From a phage: a stretch of DNA of 44,996 bases. Under the pieces are notes generated by a model that worked only from the letters and a program-made list of their open reading frames with translations, ran no database searches and was not told where the DNA came from. Positions within the stretch are counted from its first letter, which is position 1. Each line of letters opens with the position of its first letter. Below are positions 10,704 to 42,567 of the stretch, piece by piece. The stretch lies in the sequence record PZ789432.1; one strand, given 5' to 3'. A program made the translations under genes and the position numbers.

Positions 10704-10908
10704 ATTAAGCAAGGTTTGCTCTTGCGGTAAAGGCTATCGCAGTCGTATTGATGGTAAGTGTGGACATTGTAGGTCTAAGAAAGAGGCTGCTTTGTTTTAC
10801 AAATACCACAATGAACTCTCCTATAACTACCCTCATCTAACACCTAATTCTTTATTAGGACTTGGTTATAGGGCTAAATACTTTGGAGCAATCTATGAAA
10901 TCAATTGA
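10690..10908 (+). CDS. hypothetical zinc-ribbon protein (72 aa)
   Basis: ORF track 10663..10908; ATG 10690 preferred (GAGG 6 nt upstream); CSCGKG...CGHC motif. Confidence 0.5.
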   Translation: MKTIKLSKVCSCGKGYRSRIDGKCGHCRSKKEAALFYKYHNELSYNYPHLTPNSLLGLGYRAKYFGAIYEIN

Positions 10909-11380
10909 TTGGAAGAAGGAAGCGGAAGGGCGCATCCTAGTTATGGACGCCGAGGCGAAAGGTCTACTTGATGCTATACGCTATGGTCATCGTGAAGACG
11001 TGCATATCATCTGCTGTATGGACCTGTTGACTACAGAGGAGTTTCTCTTCTTCGACCCGTATGAGATGCGTGACCCTGAAGCAAGAGAACGCCTGAAGGA
11101 ATGGGAAGGTCATCAAGATGGTGACTTGGTTGATGGTGTTAACTTCCTGAAGCATTGTGAAGCTATTGTGTCACAGAACTTCCTAGGGTATGACGGACTT
11201 CTCTTTGAGAAAGCATTCCCTGATATTTGGAAGGGCTTTAACTATACCGAGAAGCGCGGTAAGGGCAGACTCCGTGCTGACCTGTGTCCGGTGCGAGTCA
11301 TGGATACGCTGGTGATGAGTCGCCTGTTAAACCCAGATAAGACGCCTTCCTCCGCAAGCATATGCCAAAGGTATGGGTAA
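10895..11380 (+). CDS. DNA polymerase (Pol I family), fragment 1 of 4: 3'-5' exonuclease domain; frame-disrupted
   Basis: ORF track 10862..11380 (TTG), first ATG 10895; Exo motifs ILVMDAEAKGL and NFLGYDGLLFEKAF; VMDTLVMSRLL parallels T7 gp5 CIDTLVLSRLI. Homology continues in another frame. Confidence 0.85.
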   Translation: MKSIDWKKEAEGRILVMDAEAKGLLDAIRYGHREDVHIICCMDLLTTEEFLFFDPYEMRDPEARERLKEWEGHQDGDLVDGVNFLKHCEAIVSQNFLGYDGLLFEKAFPDIWKGFNYTEKRGKGRLRADLCPVRVMDTLVMSRLLNPDKTPSSASICQRYG

Positions 11381-11786
11381 CGTCGCCCCTCACTCAATTG
11401 AGGCGCACGGCATCCGTATAGGCCGCTATAAACCGGAGAACGAGGACTGGTCTAAACTAACTGACCACATGGTTCACCGTGTACGTGAGGACGTGGCGAT
11501 TGGTCGTGACTTGTTCCTCTGGCTCTTTAACGGGGAATGGATGGAGCATAAACGCCGTGGCGTGAATAAACGCACGGGCCTAGGCATTGAGACAGCCTTC
11601 CACATGGAGTCCATTGTGGCGCTGGAGATGAGCCGTCAGGCCGAGCGGGGGTTCCGTCTGGACATCGACAAGGCTTTGGCCCGATGCGAAGAATTGGACG
11701 CTAAGATTGATGAGACAGTCGCAGCGTTCCGCCCTCACATGCCTATGCGTATCAAGTCTAAACCTTTTAAACCGGAAGAAAAGTAA
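11373..11786 (+). CDS. DNA polymerase, fragment 2 of 4; frame-disrupted
   Basis: HSIEAHGIRIGRYK parallels T7 gp5 HALEAWGYRLGEMK; the frame is open upstream from 11331, so the shift lies near 11335..11372. Confidence 0.8.
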   Translation: MGNVAPHSIEAHGIRIGRYKPENEDWSKLTDHMVHRVREDVAIGRDLFLWLFNGEWMEHKRRGVNKRTGLGIETAFHMESIVALEMSRQAERGFRLDIDKALARCEELDAKIDETVAAFRPHMPMRIKSKPFKPEEK

Positions 11787-12445
11787 TGAAGTATGCCAAC
11801 GCGCAAATGAGTATGGAGCTAGCAACAATATACCTACTGTCCTTGACCCCTCACACTTTCTTCATGCCGAGAGACGAGGAGATCGCAAGACAGTATGGAG
11901 AGCTTGTCACTACTAAGTCTGGTGATTGGTCGGCTAGTGTTAAGAAAGACTTTCCTCACCTTAGAGGAAACCGTAATGACACGCCAAGCATCAAGTGGAT
12001 TGGCGCTTACTCGCCTGTTACTTTCGAAGAGATTCCCTTGGGTAACAGGGATACAGTTAAGCAAGTGCTCTATGATTATGGATGGAAAGGTGTTGAATTT
12101 AACGATACCGAGCAAGCGCATCTCGATGAGTACGGAGTGTTACCCAAACCTTGGAGTGGTAAGATAAATGAAAAGTCCCTCACTTTATGGCAAGAAAGAG
12201 CCGCACGTGAAGGTAAAACAGTACCTGATTGGTGCTTGGGTATCGCTGCATGGTACATACTCGTATCCCGTCGTGGTCAGATACTCAACCGTGGTGACGT
12301 TGAAGCCTTCAACGAGAAGGGGAACGTGGCCCTCGCAGGCTGGTGTACGAAAGTGTCGCGGCCTTGTACCTGTAGCATTCAACAAGGAGCTAGGAATCAA
12401 TGCGCAGCAATACTACGAGAGGTACGGATGTTGGCCTACGTCTGA
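11786..12445 (+). CDS. DNA polymerase, fragment 3 of 4; frame-disrupted
   Basis: Back in the frame of fragment 1; polymerase-like over its N-terminal two thirds. Confidence 0.7.
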   Translation: MKYANAQMSMELATIYLLSLTPHTFFMPRDEEIARQYGELVTTKSGDWSASVKKDFPHLRGNRNDTPSIKWIGAYSPVTFEEIPLGNRDTVKQVLYDYGWKGVEFNDTEQAHLDEYGVLPKPWSGKINEKSLTLWQERAAREGKTVPDWCLGIAAWYILVSRRGQILNRGDVEAFNEKGNVALAGWCTKVSRPCTCSIQQGARNQCAAILREVRMLAYV

Positions 12446-13448
12446 CAAAGATGACGGAGAGTGGCGTGTTCCAGCTGTTGCTATTAGTATTGGCACTTCT
12501 ACGTTCCGTATGCGTCATCGTAACGTGGTTAATATTCCTGCCCGTGGCTTGTATCCTTTACGTGATTTATTCATAGCAGGGAAAGGCAAGCTAATCCTTG
12601 GTTGTGACGGTGCAGGTCTTGAACTGCGTGTCCTGTCTCACTTCATGAATGACCCTGAGTACCAAGAGATTGTACTGCACGGTGATATTCATACGCATAA
12701 CCAGATGAAGGCTGGTCTTCCTAAGCGTGATATGGCGAAGACGTTTATATACGCCTTCCTCTATGGTTCTGGTATAGCCAACCTTGCAGCAGTCTGCGGT
12801 GTTACTGAGGAAGAAATGAAGGAAGTTGTGGCAAGATTCGAGATTGAACTACCGTCTCTTGCACGTCTTCGTGAGAATGTTATCGCACAAGGTAACAAGT
12901 TTGGCTACCTGCAAGCACCTGATGGGCATTGGGGTCGCATCCGCATGTCTGGTGGTGAACTTAAAGAGCACACGATGCTTAACGTATTACTCCAGATGAC
13001 TGGCTCTTTGTGTATGAAATATGCATTAGTCAAGGCATTTGCAGTAATGCGCAAGGAAGGTGTAGCTTTGGATGCTATGGGAAATCCTTGTGGTGTGGCT
13101 AACGTGCATGATGAAATCCAGATGGAAGTTCCTGAAGAGGAGGTCTTGTATCTTAACTACGACCTACCTTTCACCTTAGATGGGTTCGAAACAGAGAAGG
13201 CTGCTGTGAAAGCAGTTTTCGATGCAGAGGAGAAACGTGTTCATGTGGATTCTGAAGGACGTATGTGGTCTGCTGCAAACCTCGTTAGCGTTGATGCTGA
13301 TGCTGGTGTATTGCATTGCCAGCGCCGTTATCACCGTGCAGGTCATATCATTGCCGACGCCATGACTTGGGCAGGGCAGTATCTGAAGATGCGTTGCCCG
13401 ATGGCAGGAGAATATAAGATTGGCGCAAGCTGGAAGGAAACACACTGA
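12168..13448 (+). CDS. DNA polymerase, fragment 4 of 4: palm/fingers; frame-disrupted
   Basis: Motif A GCDGAGLELRVLSHF, TSTFRMRHRNVVNIP (T7 TGRATHAFPNLAQIP), KTFIYAFLYG, VHDEIQ. Reliable homology starts near 12430; the first ~260 nt of this ORF overlap fragment 3. Confidence 0.85.
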   Translation: MKSPSLYGKKEPHVKVKQYLIGAWVSLHGTYSYPVVVRYSTVVTLKPSTRRGTWPSQAGVRKCRGLVPVAFNKELGINAQQYYERYGCWPTSDKDDGEWRVPAVAISIGTSTFRMRHRNVVNIPARGLYPLRDLFIAGKGKLILGCDGAGLELRVLSHFMNDPEYQEIVLHGDIHTHNQMKAGLPKRDMAKTFIYAFLYGSGIANLAAVCGVTEEEMKEVVARFEIELPSLARLRENVIAQGNKFGYLQAPDGHWGRIRMSGGELKEHTMLNVLLQMTGSLCMKYALVKAFAVMRKEGVALDAMGNPCGVANVHDEIQMEVPEEEVLYLNYDLPFTLDGFETEKAAVKAVFDAEEKRVHVDSEGRMWSAANLVSVDADAGVLHCQRRYHRAGHIIADAMTWAGQYLKMRCPMAGEYKIGASWKETH

Positions 13449-32210: not shown

Positions 32211-35200
32211 ATGGAACAAGATATTAAGACTAATTGGGCTGGATATGTCCAGTCTACTCCTGAGCCGTTTTCTATTGAGGCGGCTCCGGTATCGGCTCCT
32301 ACGATACGCCAGCGTAATGAGTTACAAGAGCAAGTTCTTGAAGCTAAAGCGGATGCTGATATCTTAGGTGCTGTAGGTGCTGCCTTCCAGAATGAGTGGT
32401 TGGCATTCGGAGGCAAGCGGTGGTATGACCGTGCCACTGCTGATTTCACACCTCAACCAGACTTCGAGATACAACCTGAGCAACGTGAAGCACTACGTTT
32501 CAAATATGGTACAGATATGATGCAGACAATCACTGAGGGTGTTCGTTCTGAGGATGAATTGAACTTCCGTATTCAGAATGCTGATGAAGACCTTGAGCGC
32601 AATAAGCGCATTGCTCAGGCTGGCTGGGTTGGCTCTGTGGCGACGATTGGCGCTGCTGTGCTTGACCCTGTGGGATGGGTTGCCTCTATTCCAACCGGTG
32701 GTGCCGCTAAAGTTGGACTCGTAGGCCGTGCTGTGCGTGGCGCTATCGCCGCTGGCGTAAGTAATGCCGCTATTGAATCCATATTGGTCCAAGGTGACAT
32801 GACTCGTGATTTAGATGACATTATGGTAGCACTAGGCTCCGGTATGGCTATGGGTGGCGTTATTGGAGCTGTAGCGCGTGGTAGGGCCACTAAGCTCAGT
32901 GAGCAAGGAGATGACAGGGCTGCGAGCATTGTGCGCAGTGCAGACGCAGGGGACCGCTATGTGCGTGCTGTTGCTGATGATAGTATCGGTGCGATGCGTG
33001 TTAAGGGTGAAGAGGTACTCACTGAGGGTGCATTTGATATCTCTAGCAAAGGTGAAGATTTGCTGAAAACCCTACAGCGGGAAGGTAATGCAATTGATAT
33101 GACCCCTCGCCGCTGGGCCGGAACTCTGTCTGCCCTTGGGACTGTCGTGCACTCCTCTCATGATACTAGTGTTCGTGGCCTCGGTGCTCGCCTGTTTGAG
33201 TCTCCGCAAGGTTTAGGTATGCAAAAGGCATCTGCCAGTCTTATGCAGAATACCAACTTGAATCGACTGAAGTCTGCTGATATGAACCGTTTCAATGACG
33301 GGTTTGACTTATGGCTCAAAGAAAATAATATCAATCCAGTTGCAGGCCATACTAACTCTCACTATGTGCAGCAATATAATGAGAAGGTATGGGAAGCTGT
33401 ACGCATCGGTATGGATGAGTCTACGCCTAAGTCTATCCGCATGGCAGCAGAGGGGCAGCAAGCTATGTACCGTGAAGCCTTAGCTTTAAGGAAGCGCTCC
33501 GGTGAAGCTGGCTTTGAAAACATTAAAGCAGATAATAAGTATATGCCTGATATCTTTGACACTATGAAAGCTCGCCGTCAATTTGATAGGATAGGAAAGG
33601 ATATAGATAAAGAAGATATCATTGAGTTATTCTCTCGTGCTTATCAGAACGGCGCTCGTAAAATTCCAAAAGAAGTAGCGGATGAAATTGCACGAGCACA
33701 AGTAAACCGCGTTGCTGGATGCCACCTTGACCGGACAGCTATGAGCTTTGAAAAGGCTATGTCTGGTCAAACCAAAGCAGAATATGAAGCACTAATGCGC
33801 AAAGCAGGCTTTAGTGATGAAGAGATTGAAAAGATGGTAGAAGCTCTGGATAATAAAGAAACCAGAGATAATATCTCTAACCGAGCTAAGATGAGTTTAG
33901 GCTTAGATGTCACTCAAGAGTACAATGGCATTCGTATGCGTGACTTTATGAACACTAACGTGGAAGAGTTAACAGATAACTACATGAAGGAAGCGGCAGG
34001 TGGTGCTGCCTTGGCTCGTCAAGGTTTCTCTACCTATCAGGCTGCACTTAATGCAATTGATCTTGTAGAGCGAAATGCACGAAATGCAGCTAAAGATACA
34101 AAAGCACACGCACAATTTGAAGCGGAGTCGGCTAAGATCCGTCAATCAGAGCCTGATTACAAGAGGGCACAAGAGAAGATTGAAGAGTTAAAGAAGCGAC
34201 TTAAATTGAAAGAGAAAGATGAAGCAGCTGGTCTGGCTATTGATGAAGAAATCCGTCAGATGCGAGAAGGGCTTCGCTTGATTATGGGTAAATCTATCGA
34301 TTCAAACCCACAAGATTTGTCTACTAAAATGCTGCGTCGTGGGCGTGACATTACAGGTGTACTTCGCTTAGGTCAGATGGGCTTCGCACAGCTAGGTGAA
34401 CTTGCTAACTTCATGGGTGAGTTTGGTATTGCTGCCACCACTATGGCTTTAGGTAAGCAATTCCGCTTCACCTCTAAGGCGTTGCGTAATGGCGATGGCT
34501 TCTTTCGAGATAAGAATTTAGCTGAGGTTGAGCGAATGGTAGGTTACATTGGTGAAGACAACTGGCTAACAACTAAGGGTGCGCGTCCAGATGAGTTTGG
34601 TGATGTAACCACAGTGCGAGGGATGATGGCCCATTTTGACCAGTCCATGAACTCTATACGACGTGCTCAGACAAACCTATCCCTCTTCCGCATGGCACAG
34701 GGTTCTCTGGAGCGAATGACCAATAGGCAAATAGCTTTGTCTTTCATTGACCATCTTGAAGGCAAGAAGATTATTCCTCAGAAGAAACTGGAGGAACTTG
34801 GTCTTACTCAGGAGTTCATGACTAACCTACAGAAGCACTATGATGCTAACTCTAAAGGCTCTGGCTTGCTTGGCTTTGATACAATGCCTTATGCCATGGG
34901 TGAAACTTTAGCTAATGCTATTCGTCGTAAGTCAGGTCTAATTATCCAACGTAACTTCATTGGTGATGAAGGTATCTGGATGAACAAAGCACTAGGTAAG
35001 ACATTTGCACAGCTTAAGTCATTCTCTCTTGTATCTGGTGAGAAGCAATTTGGTCGAGGGATTCGCCACGATAAAATTGGTCTTGCTAAGAAGACAGCTT
35101 ATGGTTTTGCTTTGGGTTCAATAGTGTATGCGGCAAAAGCCTATGTGAACTCTATTGGTCGAGAAGACCAAGATGAATATTTGGAAGAGAAGTTATCGCC

Positions 35201-35534
35201 TAAAGGGTTGGCCTTTGGTGCAATGGGTATGATGAGTACAACTGCTGTATTTAGTCTAGGTGGAGATTTCTTAGGTGGCCTAGGTGTTCTACCTTCTGAG
35301 TTAGTACAATCCCGTTATGAGGCTGGCTTTCAGACTAAGGGTTTGATAGACCAAATACCACTAGTAGGTGTTGGTCAAGATGCATATCGTTTAGCAGATT
35401 CTATAACTAAATACGCAGAGGGCGATACAGAAGGTGTAGATGTGGCACGTAGGGCTTTACGCTTAGTGCCTCTAGCTAATGTAATAGGAATCCAGAACGC
35501 ATTGCGTTATGGCTTAGATGAACTGGAGGATTAA
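32211..35534 (+). CDS. large internal virion (core) protein, T7 gp16-like by position
   Basis: 1107 aa; SD GGAGG; last of three internal proteins between tail tube and tail adaptor genes. Confidence 0.75.
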   Translation: MEQDIKTNWAGYVQSTPEPFSIEAAPVSAPTIRQRNELQEQVLEAKADADILGAVGAAFQNEWLAFGGKRWYDRATADFTPQPDFEIQPEQREALRFKYGTDMMQTITEGVRSEDELNFRIQNADEDLERNKRIAQAGWVGSVATIGAAVLDPVGWVASIPTGGAAKVGLVGRAVRGAIAAGVSNAAIESILVQGDMTRDLDDIMVALGSGMAMGGVIGAVARGRATKLSEQGDDRAASIVRSADAGDRYVRAVADDSIGAMRVKGEEVLTEGAFDISSKGEDLLKTLQREGNAIDMTPRRWAGTLSALGTVVHSSHDTSVRGLGARLFESPQGLGMQKASASLMQNTNLNRLKSADMNRFNDGFDLWLKENNINPVAGHTNSHYVQQYNEKVWEAVRIGMDESTPKSIRMAAEGQQAMYREALALRKRSGEAGFENIKADNKYMPDIFDTMKARRQFDRIGKDIDKEDIIELFSRAYQNGARKIPKEVADEIARAQVNRVAGCHLDRTAMSFEKAMSGQTKAEYEALMRKAGFSDEEIEKMVEALDNKETRDNISNRAKMSLGLDVTQEYNGIRMRDFMNTNVEELTDNYMKEAAGGAALARQGFSTYQAALNAIDLVERNARNAAKDTKAHAQFEAESAKIRQSEPDYKRAQEKIEELKKRLKLKEKDEAAGLAIDEEIRQMREGLRLIMGKSIDSNPQDLSTKMLRRGRDITGVLRLGQMGFAQLGELANFMGEFGIAATTMALGKQFRFTSKALRNGDGFFRDKNLAEVERMVGYIGEDNWLTTKGARPDEFGDVTTVRGMMAHFDQSMNSIRRAQTNLSLFRMAQGSLERMTNRQIALSFIDHLEGKKIIPQKKLEELGLTQEFMTNLQKHYDANSKGSGLLGFDTMPYAMGETLANAIRRKSGLIIQRNFIGDEGIWMNKALGKTFAQLKSFSLVSGEKQFGRGIRHDKIGLAKKTAYGFALGSIVYAAKAYVNSIGREDQDEYLEEKLSPKGLAFGAMGMMSTTAVFSLGGDFLGGLGVLPSELVQSRYEAGFQTKGLIDQIPLVGVGQDAYRLADSITKYAEGDTEGVDVARRALRLVPLANVIGIQNALRYGLDELED

Positions 35535-36497
35535 TGAGTTATACTTTCACAGAACATATAGCCAACGGTACGCAAGTAACCTATCCCTTTAGCTTTGCTG
35601 GTAGGGATAAAGGTTATCTTCGTGCCTCAGATGTGATAGTGGAGATCTCTTCAAGGTAACACTTGGATTGAGGTTACATCTGGCTGGCAACTAACTGGCA
35701 CGCACCAGATTACTTTTGATGTAGCACCAGTTGCAGGTTTGAAGTTCCGTATTCGAAGGGAAGTACAAAAGGAGTATCCATACGCTGAGTTTGACCGTGG
35801 TGTTACCTTGGATATGAAGTCTTTAAATGGTTCTTTCATTCATATACTGGAGATTACACAGGAGTTACTTGACGGGTTTTATCCAGAAGGATACTTCATT
35901 AAACAGAATGTAAGCTGGGGCGGCAATAAGATTACTGATTTGGCTGATGGCACAAATCCGGGAGATGCAGTAAACAAAGGGCAGCTTGATGCCATTGACA
36001 AGAAGCATACAGATTGGAATGCCAAACAGGACATTGAGATTGCTGGCCTTAAGGCTGGTATGACTTCTGGTATTGCGCACAGAACTGTTCCTTGGTACAC
36101 GATAGCCCAAGGTGGTGAGATTTCCGTAAAACCACCTTATGAATTTCAAGATGCACTAGTTTTCCTTAATGGGGTATTGCAGCACCAAATTGTAGGCGCA
36201 TACTCTATAAGCAACAACACTATCACTTTCGCAGAGTCGCTTGTGGCGGGTACAGAGGTGTATGTGCTGATTGGTAGTCGTGTGGCTACATCTGAACCTA
36301 ATATTCAGTTAGAGTTGAACTTTGACTTAGTAGAAGGCCAACAAGTAGTACAGATTGGCTCTGCATTTAAGTACATTGAGGTCTACCTTGATGGATTATT
36401 ACAACCTAAACTTGCTTATCAGGTAGACGGTGACATTGTTACTTTCTCAGAGGGAGTGCCAGAATGCCGGATGACTGCTAAGATTATCACAGCATAA
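35534..36497 (+). CDS. tail fiber/tailspike adaptor (T7 gp17 N-terminal-domain-like); frame-disrupted
   Basis: ATG 35534 gives MSYTFTEHIANGTQVTYPFSFAGRDKGYLRASDVIVEISSR* (ends 35659). Homology continues in another frame from ~35640 (NTWIEVTSGWQLTG...; ORF track 35739..36497). One indel near 35648..35656 restores ~321 aa. Confidence 0.7.
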
Positions 36498-36701: not shown

Positions 36702-36984
36702 ACATGCAGCTACAGAGGATGAGGTTGGCATTCTGCATGGTGCTATTACCAAAATCTTCAATAAGAAAGCACAGGCAATACTGGACACTATAGAAGAAGA
36801 CCCTGATGCAGCATTACATTTAGTGTCTGGTAAGGATATTGGTGCGATGTGTAAGTGGGTTCTTGATAACGGCATTACCGCCACACCTGCTGCACAGCAG
36901 GAAGAGTCCAAGTTATCTAAGCGCCTCAAGGCTATCCGAGAGGCATCCAGTGGTAAGATAATTCAATTCACTAAGGAGGATTGA
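36685..36984 (+). CDS. terminase small subunit (T7 gp18-like)
   Basis: ORF track 36640..36984; no in-frame ATG early; GTG 36685 five nt after GGAGGGA; directly upstream of terminase large subunit. Confidence 0.6.
   Translation: MSVHNKHAATEDEVGILHGAITKIFNKKAQAILDTIEEDPDAALHLVSGKDIGAMCKWVLDNGITATPAAQQEESKLSKRLKAIREASSGKIIQFTKED
36778..36800 (+). promoter_or_regulatory. phage RNAP promoter inside the terminase small subunit gene (aatactggacactatagaagaag)
   Basis: Core ACTGGACACTATAGAAGA identical to consensus; +1 G at 36793. Confidence 0.55.
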
Positions 36985-38882
36985 TGGCTAAGGCAAGAGA
37001 ATCACAAGCGGAGGCTCTTGCCAGATGGGAGATGCTACAGGAGTTACAGCAGACCTTTCCTTACACAGCGGAAGGTTTGCTTCTCTTTGCAGATACAGTT
37101 ATTCATAACTTAATTGCAGGCAACCCTCATCTGATTCGTATGCAGGCTGATATCTTGAAGTTCCTATTTTACGGACACAAGTACCGCCTCATCGAAGCGC
37201 CTCGTGGTATCGCTAAGACAACACTATCAGCAATCTATACGGTATTCCGTATTATTCATGAACCGCATAAGCGTATCATGGTTGTGTCCCAAAACGCCAA
37301 GCGAGCAGAGGAAATCGCAGGTTGGGTAGTTAAAATCTTCCGTGGCTTAGACTTTCTTGAGTTTATGCTGCCGGATATCTACGCTGGGGACCGTGCATCC
37401 GTTAAGGCGTTTGAGATTCATTACACCCTACGTGGTAGTGATAAGTCTCCTTCTGTATCCTGTTACTCAATCGAAGCAGGTATGCAGGGTGCTCGTGCTG
37501 ATATTATTCTAGCGGATGACGTAGAGTCGATGCAGAATGCTCGTACGGCAGCGGGCCGTGCCTTGCTTGAGGAACTGACTAAGGAGTTTGAATCTATCAA
37601 CCAGTTTGGGGATATCATTTACCTTGGTACACCTCAGAACGTAAACTCTATCTACAACAACCTACCTGCTCGTGGTTACTCTGTTCGTATCTGGACTGCG
37701 CGTTACCCTTCAGTAGAGCAAGAGCAATGTTATGGCGACTTCCTTGCACCTATGATTGTTCAAGATATGAAGGACAACCCAGCACTTCGCTCAGGGTACG
37801 GGTTGGATGGTAATAGTGGTGCACCTTGTGCCCCTGAAATGTATGATGATGAAGTCCTGATTGAGAAGGAAATCTCTCAGGGTGCTGCTAAGTTCCAGCT
37901 TCAGTTCATGCTTAACACTCGCATGATGGATGCTGACAGATACCCATTACGCCTGAACAATCTAATCTTCACCTCGTTTGGTACAGAGGAAGTCCCTGTG
38001 ATGCCTACGTGGAGTAATGATTCCATAAACATCATTGGTGATGCACCTAAGTATGGTAACAAGCCTACGGATTTCATGTACAGACCTGTAGCTCGCCCAT
38101 ACGAATGGGGTGCTGTCTCCCGCAAGATTATGTATATTGACCCTGCGGGTGGCGGTAAGAATGGGGATGAGACGGGTGTGGCTATCGTATTCCTGCACGG
38201 CACATTCATTTACGTGTATCAGTGCTTCGGTGTGCCGGGTGGATACCGCGAATCGTCCCTGAATCGCATTGTGCAGGCCGCAAAGCAGGCGGGTGTTAAA
38301 GAGGTATTCATTGAGAAGAACTTTGGTCATGGCGCGTTTGAGGCGGTAATTAAGCCGTACTTTGAACGAGAGTGGCCTGTAACTCTGGAAGAGGATTACG
38401 CCACCGGACAGAAAGAATTGCGTATCATTGAGACGCTGGAGCCGCTCATGGCAGCCCATAGGCTTATCTTCAATGCAGAAATGGTGAAGTCAGACTTTGA
38501 GTCGGTACAGCACTATCCGCTTGAACTACGCATGTCCTACAGTCTTTTCAATCAAATGTCGAACATAACGATTGAGAAGAACAGCCTCCGGCACGATGAC
38601 CGCCTAGACGCCCTGTATGGCGCTATACGGCAATTAACTTCTCAGATAGACTATGACGAGGTTACACGGATTAATCGCCTCAGAGCGCAGGAGATGCGAG
38701 ATTACATCCATGCTATGAACACACCTCATCTACGCAGGGCAATGCTATATGGGGATTACGGTACTGAGCGAAGAGTGACCAACACTTCCGTAGCGATGCA
38801 GCAGCGAGTTTACGGGCAGAACTACCGAAATAAATCGGCAAGCAGAAATACACTTTCTGCAAGGATTTCAAGGACTTATTAA
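36984..38882 (+). CDS. terminase large subunit
   Basis: 633 aa (ORF track 36981, ATG 36984); position and size as T7 gp19; acidic nuclease-type segments in C-terminal half. Confidence 0.9.
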   Translation: MAKARESQAEALARWEMLQELQQTFPYTAEGLLLFADTVIHNLIAGNPHLIRMQADILKFLFYGHKYRLIEAPRGIAKTTLSAIYTVFRIIHEPHKRIMVVSQNAKRAEEIAGWVVKIFRGLDFLEFMLPDIYAGDRASVKAFEIHYTLRGSDKSPSVSCYSIEAGMQGARADIILADDVESMQNARTAAGRALLEELTKEFESINQFGDIIYLGTPQNVNSIYNNLPARGYSVRIWTARYPSVEQEQCYGDFLAPMIVQDMKDNPALRSGYGLDGNSGAPCAPEMYDDEVLIEKEISQGAAKFQLQFMLNTRMMDADRYPLRLNNLIFTSFGTEEVPVMPTWSNDSINIIGDAPKYGNKPTDFMYRPVARPYEWGAVSRKIMYIDPAGGGKNGDETGVAIVFLHGTFIYVYQCFGVPGGYRESSLNRIVQAAKQAGVKEVFIEKNFGHGAFEAVIKPYFEREWPVTLEEDYATGQKELRIIETLEPLMAAHRLIFNAEMVKSDFESVQHYPLELRMSYSLFNQMSNITIEKNSLRHDDRLDALYGAIRQLTSQIDYDEVTRINRLRAQEMRDYIHAMNTPHLRRAMLYGDYGTERRVTNTSVAMQQRVYGQNYRNKSASRNTLSARISRTY

Positions 38883-38902
38883 TTACTGGACACTATAGAA
38901 GG
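38880..38902 (+). promoter_or_regulatory. phage RNAP promoter (ttaattactggacactatagaagg)
   Basis: Consensus; +1 G at 38897; followed by AT-rich motifs shared with 6226..6270 and hairpin gggtgtac-tcct-gtacaccc. Confidence 0.75.
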
Positions 38903-39037
38903 AAGGCCCAGATAATAAGAGAAAATAATAGGTAATATATAGGTTAACCTAGGTTATATAGGTATGCCTTAGTATGGGTGTACTCCTGTACACCCTATTC
39001 CTTACTACCTTACTATATTTACATAATAGGAGAGACA

Positions 39038-39316
39038 ATGGCTAATGATTATAGTAGTCAACCATTAACAGGTAAGTCTAAGAGAAAGCAGGTACAACCT
39101 GTAAGTGAAGAACTAATGCTTCCGGTAATCAAAAAAGAGGAAGCTAGTAAGAAAAACAATGCTATTAATGATGCCACCAAATCAGGTAAACAGAAAGGGG
39201 CCATGGTGTGCCTTGAAGTGGAAGGTGGTGTATTGAAGATTGCTATCGCGGTTGATGGCAAAGAAGATTCAGAGTGGAAGTTAGTAACAGTGGAACCAGT
39301 TGTTAACCCAGTTTAA
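39038..39316 (+). CDS. hypothetical protein (92 aa), paralog A of a tandem pair
   Basis: ORF track 38978..39316 (GTG); ATG 39038 after AGGAG; shares SGKQKGAMV.LE...L.IA.A motif with the next ORF. Confidence 0.65.
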   Translation: MANDYSSQPLTGKSKRKQVQPVSEELMLPVIKKEEASKKNNAINDATKSGKQKGAMVCLEVEGGVLKIAIAVDGKEDSEWKLVTVEPVVNPV

Positions 39317-39334
39317 GAGAAGGAGGAAGATTAC

Positions 39335-39628
39335 ATGGCTAAATATGGTACTAAAGGTTCTGTTACGGGTCAGGCTTTTCGAGTGAAAGCAGTACAAACT
39401 ATTGCAACGGCAATCCCGATGCCTGTTGTTAAAGAAGTAGACCTTAAGAGTAAAGATCACCCTATCAACATCAAACATTTATCAGGTAAACAGAAAGGTG
39501 CAATGGTTGCTCTTGAGAAAAGTGACACAACCTTACATATTGCTGTTGCACGTGGTAGTGAACCAACAGACCCTTGGGATGTAACTGGCATGGACTCGCT
39601 CGCTGTCACTCCAGCAGGTGGAGAATAA
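39335..39628 (+). CDS. hypothetical protein (97 aa), paralog B of a tandem pair
   Basis: ORF track; SD AAGGAGG; LSGKQKGAMVALEKSDTTLHIAVARG parallels KSGKQKGAMVCLEVEGGVLKIAIAVDG upstream. Confidence 0.7.
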   Translation: MAKYGTKGSVTGQAFRVKAVQTIATAIPMPVVKEVDLKSKDHPINIKHLSGKQKGAMVALEKSDTTLHIAVARGSEPTDPWDVTGMDSLAVTPAGGE

Positions 39629-39985
39629 TGCTTAACAAATACTTCAAGCGCCGTGAGTTCGCTTGCCGTTGTGGGTGCGGTACATCCACTGTTGATGCTG
39701 AATTACTACAGGTAGTCACAGATGTGCGTGAGCACTTTGGTTCGTACCTGTAGTAATCACTTCGGGGCATCGCTGTGCTAAGCACAATGCCAACGTAGGA
39801 GGAGCTAAGAAGGTTCCATGCATCTTACTGGTAAGGCTGCTGACATTAAGGTATCTAGGTGTCTGGTACCAATCGGAGGTACGTACAGTACCTCTGCTAA
39901 TAAATACCCTGATAAGTATGGCATTGGTGCTTATACCTACTTTTACCCATATCGACGTTACGAGACAACGAGTGCACGATGGTAA
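39628..39985 (+). pseudogene. endolysin, zinc peptidase M15-type, with about four frame disruptions in this sequence
   Basis: Successive frames give MLNKYFKRREFACRCGCG...VREHFGS / PVVITSGHRCAKHNANVGGAKK / SMHLTGKAADIKV...GIGAYTY / FTHIDV / ...SARW*, together the M15 hallmark. Each break is at a short G or T run. Confidence 0.75.
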
Positions 39986-40588: not shown

Positions 40589-40667
40589 GTAAGATAGCGC
40601 CGTTCTTTTGAGCGGCCTATTACTAGCCAATCTTCATAGGGAGGGTTGGAAAGTAATAGGAGATAGC

Positions 40668-41792
40668 ATGGCTAAATTAACCAAACCTAAGACTGAAGGA
40701 ATCTTGCATAAAGGACAATCTTTGTATGAGTACCTTGATGCGAGAGTTTTAACATCAAAGCCGTTTGGTGCTGCAGGTGACGCCACTACTGATGATACGG
40801 AGGTTATAGCTGCTTCACTAAACTCTCAAAAAGCTGTCACAGTCTCAGATGGTGTATTCTCTAGCTCTGGTATTAATAGTAATTACTGTAACTTAGACGG
40901 CAGGGGTAGTGGAGTACTAAGTCACCGTTCAAGTACAGGTAACTACTTAGTATTTAACAATCTACGTGCAGGTCGCTTAAGTAATATTACGGTAGAAAGT
41001 AATAAGGCGACTGATACAACTCGGGGACAGCAGGTATCTCTTGCTGGTGGAAGTGATGTTACTGTAAGTGACGTTAACTTCTCAAACGTTAAAGGTACTG
41101 GTTTCAGTTTAATAGCATACCCTAATGGTGCGCCACCTAATGGGCTTATGATTAAAGGTATTCGAGGTAGCTACTCCGGCTATGCTACTAATAAGGCAGC
41201 CGGATGCGTACTTGCTGACTCCTCAGTTAACTCCCTAATAGATAACGTCATTGCTAAGAACTACCCTCAGTTCGGAGCCGTAGAGTTGAAAGGTACAGCC
41301 AGTTATAACATAGTCAGTAATGTTATAGGGACAGATTGCCAGCATGTAACTTACAACGGCACTGAAGGGCCAATAGCTCCTTCTAATAACCTTATCAAGG
41401 GTGTGATGGCTAATAACCCTAAGTATGCAGCGGTTGTTGCAGGCAAAGGAAGTACGAACTTAATCTCAGACGTGCTCGTAGATTACTCAACTTCTGATGC
41501 TAGGCAGGCTCATGGTGTTACCGTAGAGGGGTCTGATACCGTCATAAATAATGTGCTTATGTCAGGATGTGATGGTACTAACTCTTTAGGACAAAGTCAG
41601 ACTGCTACAATTGCGCGCTTTATAGGTACAGCTAATAACAACTATGCGTCTGTATTTCCTAGCTACAGTGCTACAGGTGTTATTACTTTCGAATCCGGCT
41701 CTACCCGTAACTTCGTAGAGGTAAAGCACCCTGGCAGGAGAAATGACCTTCTCAGTTCTGCTAGTACTATTGACAGGTGCAGCTACTATTGA
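40668..41792 (+). CDS. tailspike 1 (beta-helix polysaccharide depolymerase, K5-lyase-like), N-terminal fragment; frame-disrupted
   Basis: ORF track 40608..41792 (TTG); ATG 40668 after AGGAG; beta-helix-like repeats; frame lost near 41775. Confidence 0.8.
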   Translation: MAKLTKPKTEGILHKGQSLYEYLDARVLTSKPFGAAGDATTDDTEVIAASLNSQKAVTVSDGVFSSSGINSNYCNLDGRGSGVLSHRSSTGNYLVFNNLRAGRLSNITVESNKATDTTRGQQVSLAGGSDVTVSDVNFSNVKGTGFSLIAYPNGAPPNGLMIKGIRGSYSGYATNKAAGCVLADSSVNSLIDNVIAKNYPQFGAVELKGTASYNIVSNVIGTDCQHVTYNGTEGPIAPSNNLIKGVMANNPKYAAVVAGKGSTNLISDVLVDYSTSDARQAHGVTVEGSDTVINNVLMSGCDGTNSLGQSQTATIARFIGTANNNYASVFPSYSATGVITFESGSTRNFVEVKHPGRRNDLLSSASTIDRCSYY

Positions 41793-42567
41793 TGGCACTA
41801 ATAATAGTAACGTAGTGCACGCACCTGCCTTAGGGCAGTACATCGGTAGTATGTCAGGTAGGTTCGAATGGCGGATTAAGTCCATGTCACTCCCTTCAGG
41901 CGTTCTTACTTCTGCTGATAAGTACAGAATGCTTGGGGATGGTGCTGTGTCATTAGCTGTAGGTGGGGGCACTTCTTCTCAAGTTCGCCTATTTACTTCT
42001 GATGGTACTTCTCGGACAGTGTCCCTCACCAACGGTAACGTGCGTCTTTCTACCAGTAGCGCAGGCTATTTGCAGTTAGGTGCTGATGCAATGACCCCAG
42101 ATAGTACTGGTACATACGCATTAGGTTCCGCCAGTCGAGCATGGTCTGGCGGTTTTACTCAAGCAGCATTCACTGTTACCTCAGATGCTCGGTGTAAAAC
42201 AGAACCTCTTACTATCTCAGATGCCTTACTGGATGCTTGGTCTGAAGTTGACTTTGTGCAGTTTCAGTATTTGGATCGTGTTGAGGAGAAAGGTGCAGAC
42301 TCAGCTAGATGGCACTTTGGCATCATCGCTCAGCGAGCTAAGGAGGCTTTCGAACGTCACGGTATAGATGCACATCGCTACGGCTTCTTGTGCTTCGACA
42401 GTTGGGAGGATGTATACGAGGAAGATGCAAATGGCTCTCGTAAACTGATTACACCAGCAGGTTCCCGCTATGGTATTCGTTACGAGGAAGTACTGATATT
42501 AGAGGCTGCGTTGATGCGGCGGACTATTAAGCGTATGCAGGAAGCACTAGTTGCCATTCCTAAGTAA
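41743..42567 (+). CDS. tailspike 1, C-terminal fragment with intramolecular chaperone (peptidase S74-like) domain; frame-disrupted
   Basis: C-terminus ...DARCKTEPLTISDALLDAWSEVDFVQFQYLD...ARWHFGIIAQ...YGFLCFD... parallels the autocleaving chaperone domain of K1F endosialidase (...GERKTEPVVFDDAFLDAWGDV...ARIHFGVIAQ...YAVLCYD). Joined length ~633 aa. Confidence 0.8.
   Translation: MTFSVLLVLLTGAATIDGTNNSNVVHAPALGQYIGSMSGRFEWRIKSMSLPSGVLTSADKYRMLGDGAVSLAVGGGTSSQVRLFTSDGTSRTVSLTNGNVRLSTSSAGYLQLGADAMTPDSTGTYALGSASRAWSGGFTQAAFTVTSDARCKTEPLTISDALLDAWSEVDFVQFQYLDRVEEKGADSARWHFGIIAQRAKEAFERHGIDAHRYGFLCFDSWEDVYEEDANGSRKLITPAGSRYGIRYEEVLILEAALMRRTIKRMQEALVAIPK

Follow-up and report, generated by a model that had tools for sequence, protein, structure and literature searches.

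The window, that is the whole stretch of DNA that was analysed (44,996 nucleotides; sequence record PZ789432.1), comprises the whole genome of a K1-5-like coliphage of the genus Vectrevirus (Molineuxvirinae, Autographiviridae). Near its right end, between the genes for the large terminase and the M15 peptidase endolysin, lie two small intact genes, 41 and 42. The region 38880–39660, which includes both of them, shares a DNA identity of 96–98% with several Vectrevirus isolates and of 95.8% with K1-5. The following features could be assigned to this locus:

36981–38882: large terminase, 633 amino acids in a single open reading frame, upstream neighbour of gene 41
38885–38903, plus strand: phage-RNA-polymerase promoter (SP6/K1-5-type), exact match to ACTGGACACTATAGAAGGA
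38976–38995, plus strand: stem-loop in the 5′ leader of the gene 41 mRNA, 8 bp stem and 4 nt loop (terminator-like scan; minimum-free-energy fold)
39028–39032, plus strand: Shine-Dalgarno sequence AGGAG of gene 41, 5 nt before the ATG at 39038
39038–39316, plus strand: gene 41, open reading frame of 92 amino acids with ATG start, gene-1-type family member (PHROG 2725, E 1.2e-36)
39320–39326, plus strand: Shine-Dalgarno sequence AAGGAGG of gene 42, 8 nt before the ATG at 39335
39335–39628, plus strand: gene 42, open reading frame of 97 amino acids with ATG start, gene-2-type family member (PHROG 2725, E 5.7e-44)

The original prediction, which had been made from the sequence alone, described two open reading frames of 92 and 97 amino acids between terminase and endolysin, each with its own strong Shine-Dalgarno sequence and the pair being preceded by a promoter. 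All of this agrees with the annotation above, and the peptides quoted there were found at 39038–39316 and 39335–39628. The promoter is a late phage-RNA-polymerase site which begins 3 nt past the stop codon of the large terminase gene and drives genes 41 and 42 as well as the lysis genes. Eight related promoter sites are present in the window (expected by chance: 0), and the site upstream of gene 41 is kept in K1-5, K1E, mutPK1A2, SP6, Kp7 and PP1. At the other end of the pair, the ATG of the endolysin gene overlaps the stop codon of gene 42 (TAATG, 39626–39630).

The leader of gene 41 (38904–39037) is untranslated, conserved across genera and contains TAGG-rich repeats including the palindrome TAGGTTAACCTA. 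Compared to shuffled sequences, this leader as a whole shows no increased stability (z 0.32), with the local hairpin at 38976–38995 alone standing out. The letters of its stem differ in SP6, Kp7 and PP1 with the pairing being retained, and both sides have changed in four of seven pairs (n = 4 sequences). This comparison of four sequences weakly hints that the hairpin might be an RNA processing or stability element.

The endolysin gene downstream of the pair is broken in the window (39628–39985). The open reading frame starting at the ATG at 39628 ends at 39753, and the remainder is found in other frames, for example at 39818–39985. An alignment with K1-5 and K1E exhibits two 2-nt insertions plus a divergent stretch with more insertions, and the endolysin stretch as a whole comprises 1001 nt in the window versus 982 nt in the closest relative. 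The K5-lyase tailspike region (40608–42567) consists of two overlapping open reading frames (40608–41792 and 41743–42567), whereas gp46 of K1-5 is encoded by a single one of 632 amino acids. The DNA-polymerase region (10862–13448) and the region of the internal virion protein and adaptor (32211–36497) look fragmented, too. As all of these regions look fragmented, an assembly rich in insertions and deletions is suspected, which suggests that assembly errors and not real pseudogenes are seen here.

gp41 and gp42 share 34% identity over 87 residues (BLASTP, E 6e-14) and are thus true paralogues, as had been predicted. A purpose-built family HMM recognised both of them (E 3e-33 for gp41 and 1.5e-37 for gp42) and no third copy anywhere in the window. 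The family is characterised by an N-terminal T-G-(K/Q) ... R.K motif, P-V-V, HPIN followed by SGKQKGAMV, IAVA.GS.P.D.W and a C-terminal VTPA. The invariant columns of an alignment of 11 sequences from six phages (T-G near residues 11–12, N45, S-G-K at 50–52 and G55) are all present in gp41 and gp42. W81 is found in at least 90% of the aligned sequences, and both window proteins contain a tryptophan near residue 81.

Across genera the two copies fall into separate groups, of which one (gene-41-type) includes the gene 41 products of the window, K1E and SP6 along with mutPK1A2 gp49, Kp7 gp45 and PP1 43, and the other (gene-42-type) the gene 42 products of the window, K1E and SP6 along with mutPK1A2 gp50 and Kp7 46. 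Both copy types are positional orthologues in Vectrevirus, SP6, Kp7 and PP1. As these groups extend across genera, the duplication is ancient, with the gene order being conserved, both copies being retained and their positions not being interchangeable. The duplication that had been predicted is therefore real, but it did not occur recently in this phage.

Both proteins match the profile of PHROG 2725 over its full length, and this PHROG is labelled 'acetyl-CoA acetyltransferase', a name that is repeated in RefSeq and in many GenBank records. Scans of gp41 and gp42 against Pfam, NCBIfam and PADLOC yielded no match. The earlier statement that the pair contains no known domain holds in this respect, but the two genes were already catalogued as K1-5 genes 41/42 and as PHROG 2725, under the wrong name of an enzyme. 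That gp41 and gp42 are indeed acetyl-CoA acetyltransferases (thiolases) has practically no chance of being correct. What speaks for it is the label on PHROG 2725 and on the database records. Thiolases comprise about 390 amino acids, compared to 92 and 97 in the window proteins. Even at E ≤ 10, Pfam revealed neither Thiolase_N nor Thiolase_C nor any other enzyme family, only a chance match to Adeno_E3 (E 0.13), and NCBIfam did not contain any enzyme match for the two proteins either. As gp42 lacks cysteine and gp41, with its single cysteine, lacks histidine, a Cys-His-Cys catalytic set is impossible, and also the predicted fold, a small beta domain, gave no enzyme match. Failing every thiolase test (length, domains, catalytic residues and fold), the enzyme name was rejected and is regarded as a misannotation that has been passed on between records. 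One relative carries a 'Sema domain' label, which could likewise be traced to a chance-level plexin match (E 0.09). Phages of the K1-5, K1E and SP6 type serve as model podophages and in therapy, and in each of them two or three well-expressed late genes carry the false enzyme name. A corrected label matters for safety screens, which flag 'metabolic' genes in therapeutic phages.

Relatives of the two proteins are widespread among podophages of the Autographiviridae. Using tblastn, relatives of gp42 were found in at least 185 phage records (305 places) and relatives of gp41 in 144 records, and when 1.84 billion cluster representatives were searched with a profile, 220 clusters were obtained at E ≤ 0.001. 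Among the hosts are Escherichia, Klebsiella, Salmonella, Proteus, Vibrio, Erwinia, Pectobacterium, Pseudomonas, Edwardsiella and Aeromonas. In every genome opened (the window, K1-5, K1E, mutPK1A2, SP6, PP1, Tola, PP99, Kp7 and L008, a 44.8-kb metagenomic T7-like contig) the family genes directly follow the large terminase and precede the lysis genes.

At this locus the family occurs as one to three tandem genes, as one three-domain gene or as an N-terminal domain with various C-terminal extensions. Two copies are present in K1-5, K1E and the window, and three tandem genes in SP6 (41, 42 and 42.3), PP1, Kp7 and mutPK1A2. Many uncultured T7-like phages encode instead a single protein of 260–300 amino acids with three tandem family domains, which in L008 is found at the same locus, just after the large terminase. 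In longer proteins the family domain is always N-terminal. In Kp7 gp47 it is followed by an Ig_3 domain (31.2 bits, cutoff 30) which matches the Ig domain of the T5 decoration protein pb10 (5lxk, E 3e-16) as well as Hoc-like PHROGs. In gp63 of the Aeromonas phage Tola and in the protein P0241, the family domain is fused to the C-terminal region of the head fibre of phi29 (PF11133, above threshold), and in P0187 to an Sf6-type knob (PF16532). C-terminal domains of unknown type are carried by P0185, P0190, P0259, P0264 and mutPK1A2 gp51. The latter, a third paralogue of 225 amino acids in a phage of the same genus as that of the window, consists of a family domain and an extension of ~150 amino acids with unknown fold (PHROG 32357). 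Its gene (L011, positions 1791–2468) lies between gene 42 and the endolysin gene, and this type of third paralogue is present in 31 phage records and absent from the window and K1-5. The window proteins gp41 and gp42 did not exhibit any Ig match; the Ig domain sits only in the third paralogue of relatives such as Kp7 gp47. Two further candidates were discarded. The knob protein gp48 of PP99 is encoded at the same locus, yet its N-terminus is not detectably a family member, and P0256 (794 amino acids, eight repeats) was judged to be a spurious repeat match. Judged from sequence, an N-terminal family domain combined with varied C-terminal domains has the architecture of an anchor which holds display domains on a particle.

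The family units most likely assemble in threes. This is suggested by the three-gene and three-domain forms occurring at one locus and by a comparison of ten three-domain fusions, in six of which domains 1, 2 and 3 are closest to the same-numbered domain of another fusion. It also fits with an AlphaFold2 model of a three-domain protein (m7d18d01f5842), for which a pTM of 0.71 was obtained although 68 of its 291 residues are disordered. Given the definition of the pTM, this value points to the three domains being placed as one body. Trimers are also formed by the head fibre of phi29 and by the knob of Sf6, to both of which the family domain is fused in relatives. That the window contains two paralogues, not three, speaks against such an assembly.

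Experimental evidence for the presence of family members in virions comes from the Klebsiella phage Kp7, another member of the Molineuxvirinae. When virions of Kp7 were purified and their gel bands analysed by mass spectrometry, gp45, gp46 and gp47 were identified and reported as 'minor capsid proteins', with no localisation being given (bioRxiv 10.1101/2024.05.19.594906). The GenBank record of Kp7 uses the same name for all three, which is a statement of the depositors, who had determined the structures of both capsid and tail. The three proteins belong to the family (HMM E 1e-20, 3e-22 and 5e-14, respectively) and are encoded between the large terminase and the endolysin; gp41 of the window shares 43% identity with Kp7 gp45 (E 5e-10). 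A literature search for virion proteomics or cryo-EM of SP6, K1E or K1-5 mentioning these genes returned the Kp7 preprint only. In PDB sequence searches with single proteins and with the family profile no chain matched the family, the only hits being chance-level matches to plexin. Within the deposited Kp7 capsid 7y3t, the only entry matching the major capsid protein of Kp7, this protein alone was matched, and not gp45–47, while the tail complex 7y22 matched two tail proteins that were queried.

Structure prediction had been named in the original prediction as one way of checking it. The AlphaFold2 model of gp42 (pLDDT 69, moderate confidence) exhibits disordered residues 1–21 and beta strands at 31–33, 57–61, 66–72 and 81–90, and the predicted combination of a flexible N-terminal arm with a small beta domain had no fold match in the PDB. 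No fold in common with a solved decoration protein (the cement folds of lambda gpD, T4 Soc and phage L Dec) was found.

The two genes evolve exceptionally fast on the protein level. In the comparison with K1E, at a dS of about 0.5–0.55, dN is 0.32 for gp41 and 0.17 for gp42, compared to 0.002 for the adjacent terminase, and in general the protein-level evolution of genes 41 and 42 is 35–150 times faster than that of this neighbour. Between K1E and mutPK1A2 the terminase is near-identical (dS 0.008) and gp41 very different (dN 0.50). For gene 42, dN/dS values of 0.15–0.38 were obtained. Such a fast protein evolution would fit with exposed, exchangeable surface modules.

It appears moderately likely that gp41 and gp42 are decoration or anchor proteins on the virion surface which assemble in threes, the window containing bare versions of the anchor. 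In line with the strong late expression signals, the proteins would be made abundantly late in infection, each unit consisting of a flexible basic N-terminal arm with the conserved T-G-K/Q ... R.K and a beta domain of ~60 residues, which carries the HPIN...SGKQKGAMV loop-and-strand, the IAVA.GS.P.D.W motif and the C-terminal VTPA. Three such units would join in non-equivalent positions, and it is proposed that gene-41-type and gene-42-type copies are both kept because the positions in the assembly are non-equivalent. Arms and conserved loops would then attach the assembly to the outside of the particle, most likely to the DNA-filled T7-like capsid, where it could cement the shell and/or offer a platform. 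From this platform, an additional paralogue of relatives may extend a display domain (Ig, head-fibre tip, knob or a domain of unknown type) for weak surface adhesion, whereas the phage of the window would, like K1-5, carry only the two bare anchors. Of the three options offered in the original prediction, virion decoration is thus the favoured one, given the Kp7 orthologues in purified virions and the fusions to Ig, head-fibre and knob domains; nothing points to lysis regulation or to a superinfection function. The weakest step of this anchor reading is the location, capsid versus tail, with the virion evidence coming from orthologues that are 40–45% identical.

It is possible, yet rather doubtful, that the family represents a previously uncharacterised decoration fold. 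A unit of ~90 residues with arm and beta domain would in this case form a three-part platform on T7-like capsids and serve as a universal N-terminal anchor, to which the Autographiviridae attach interchangeable adhesion domains. Either separate paralogues would join as a heterotrimer in this platform, or one three-domain chain would form a pseudo-trimer. Therapeutic phages of the K1-5 and SP6 type would in that case possess a natural and dispensable scaffold for display, with paralogues at non-equivalent capsid sites.

With the location being the weakest step, it has to be considered whether gp41 and gp42 are structural proteins of the tail or neck, bound to the portal, adaptor, nozzle or tailspike-adaptor as short whiskers or anchors of accessory fibres. 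This appears unlikely. The presence of orthologues in virions would also be explained by such a location, an Sf6-type tail-needle knob is among the fusion partners, the Ig domain also matches tail and neck-whisker proteins (9c2d and 9occ) and major-tail-protein PHROGs, and the genes belong to the right-end block that includes the tailspike genes. However, the family was without a match among the chains of the PDB, including those of the Kp7 tail complex 7y22, and the Kp7 depositors, who know both structures, speak of capsid proteins. The remaining fusion partners are moreover of the head type (the phi29 head fibre and the Hoc-like and pb10-like Ig domains). The family is also kept across phages with different tail appendages, namely T7-type tail fibres in L008 and SP6-type adaptors with tailspikes in the window, and because of this range a shared partner such as the capsid is favoured.

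A different explanation would be that gp41 and gp42 are non-structural late proteins, such as helpers of assembly or packaging, regulators of lysis timing or factors of superinfection exclusion, with the detection in Kp7 virions resulting from carry-over. The genes follow immediately after the packaging genes in all genomes examined, are transcribed together with the lysis genes, and the TAATG overlap couples the translation of gene 42 to that of the endolysin gene. Yet Kp7 gp45–47 were among the proteins from visible gel bands of purified virions, and fusions to Ig, head-fibre and knob domains make little sense for an intracellular regulator. Neither membrane-spanning nor signal sequences are present in gp41 and gp42, no defence or anti-defence family matched them, and the combination of high dN with conserved short motifs fits with exposed structural modules. 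A non-structural role is for these reasons very unlikely.

T7-like capsids are usually described as undecorated. If gp41 and gp42 are anchors on the virion surface, they would represent a new family of decoration proteins for this type of capsid, which would make a natural site available to phage display or to the engineering of capsids and help to explain the swapping of adhesion modules. The genes of the window themselves are near-identical copies of catalogued genes (K1-5 41/42, PHROG 2725). The modular three-way anchor reading and the explicit rejection of the enzyme name are absent from the accessible literature.

Among known systems, the closest likeness is to K1-5, which also contains two copies and whose gp41 shares 93.5% amino acid identity with gp41 of the window. 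The identity of gp42 is 74–75% to K1E and 51–53% to SP6 gp42. Position after the large terminase, promoter and motifs are common to K1-5, K1E and SP6 and no substantive difference was seen, except that SP6 contains a truncated third copy (42.3). Kp7 gp45–47 represent the same family in the same synteny, gp45 being of the gene-41-type and gp46 of the gene-42-type. In contrast to the window, Kp7 contains a third member with a C-terminal Ig domain, and the identity is only 40–45%.

T5 pb10 and T4 Hoc resemble the long family members by combining an N-terminal anchor with a C-terminal Ig-like domain that is exposed on the head. Their anchor domains, however, do not share detectable sequence similarity with the family, and the window proteins do not contain an Ig domain. 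Furthermore, pb10 and Hoc bind as monomers at the centres of hexamers, whereas the gp41/gp42 family exhibits signs of a three-part assembly. Lambda gpD and T4 Soc (9–11 kDa) resemble gp41 and gp42 in size, gpD likewise possesses a flexible arm at its N-terminus, and both gpD and Soc are abundantly made late and added to the outside of the shell in threes. By analogy it is proposed that the bare anchors gp41 and gp42 could act like this cement. The head fibre of phi29 (gp8.5) is a trimer whose N-terminal base is anchored at quasi-three-fold sites. A segment of Tola gp63 and P0241 matches its C-terminal region, but this distal segment is all that is common, as the sequence of the base domain is not related to the family and gp41 and gp42 of the window are fibreless. 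Pairs of small decoration proteins, of which one is bare and the other extended, have been described for T7-like capsids (PMC11440229). These are helix-turn-helix dimers at two-fold axes, unlike the putative beta domain of the gp41/gp42 family, for which the profile search gave no PDB match, the entries of those dimers included. Having different folds and no sequence link, P2_50 (a vertex protein of Peru-2) and the alpha-claw proteins of phiM1 were rejected as relatives. On the sequence level, gp41 and gp42 are not members of the pb10, Hoc, phi29 head-fibre, gpD or Soc families.

Some minor observations concern individual loci of relatives. In K1E (L010, positions 1–1036) the annotation divides the large terminase into two parts (40B and others), and a putative homing endonuclease gene (40.5) is inserted upstream. 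In L008, the gene next after that of the three-domain protein is immediately preceded by a stop-to-stop frame with a partial family match (11007–11453; HMM positions 49–86, E 2e-7), which is possibly the remnant of a fourth unit. The metagenomic protein P0127 is a natural chimera, its N-terminal half being of the gene-41-type and its C-terminal half of the gene-42-type, which indicates recombination between the two paralogues.
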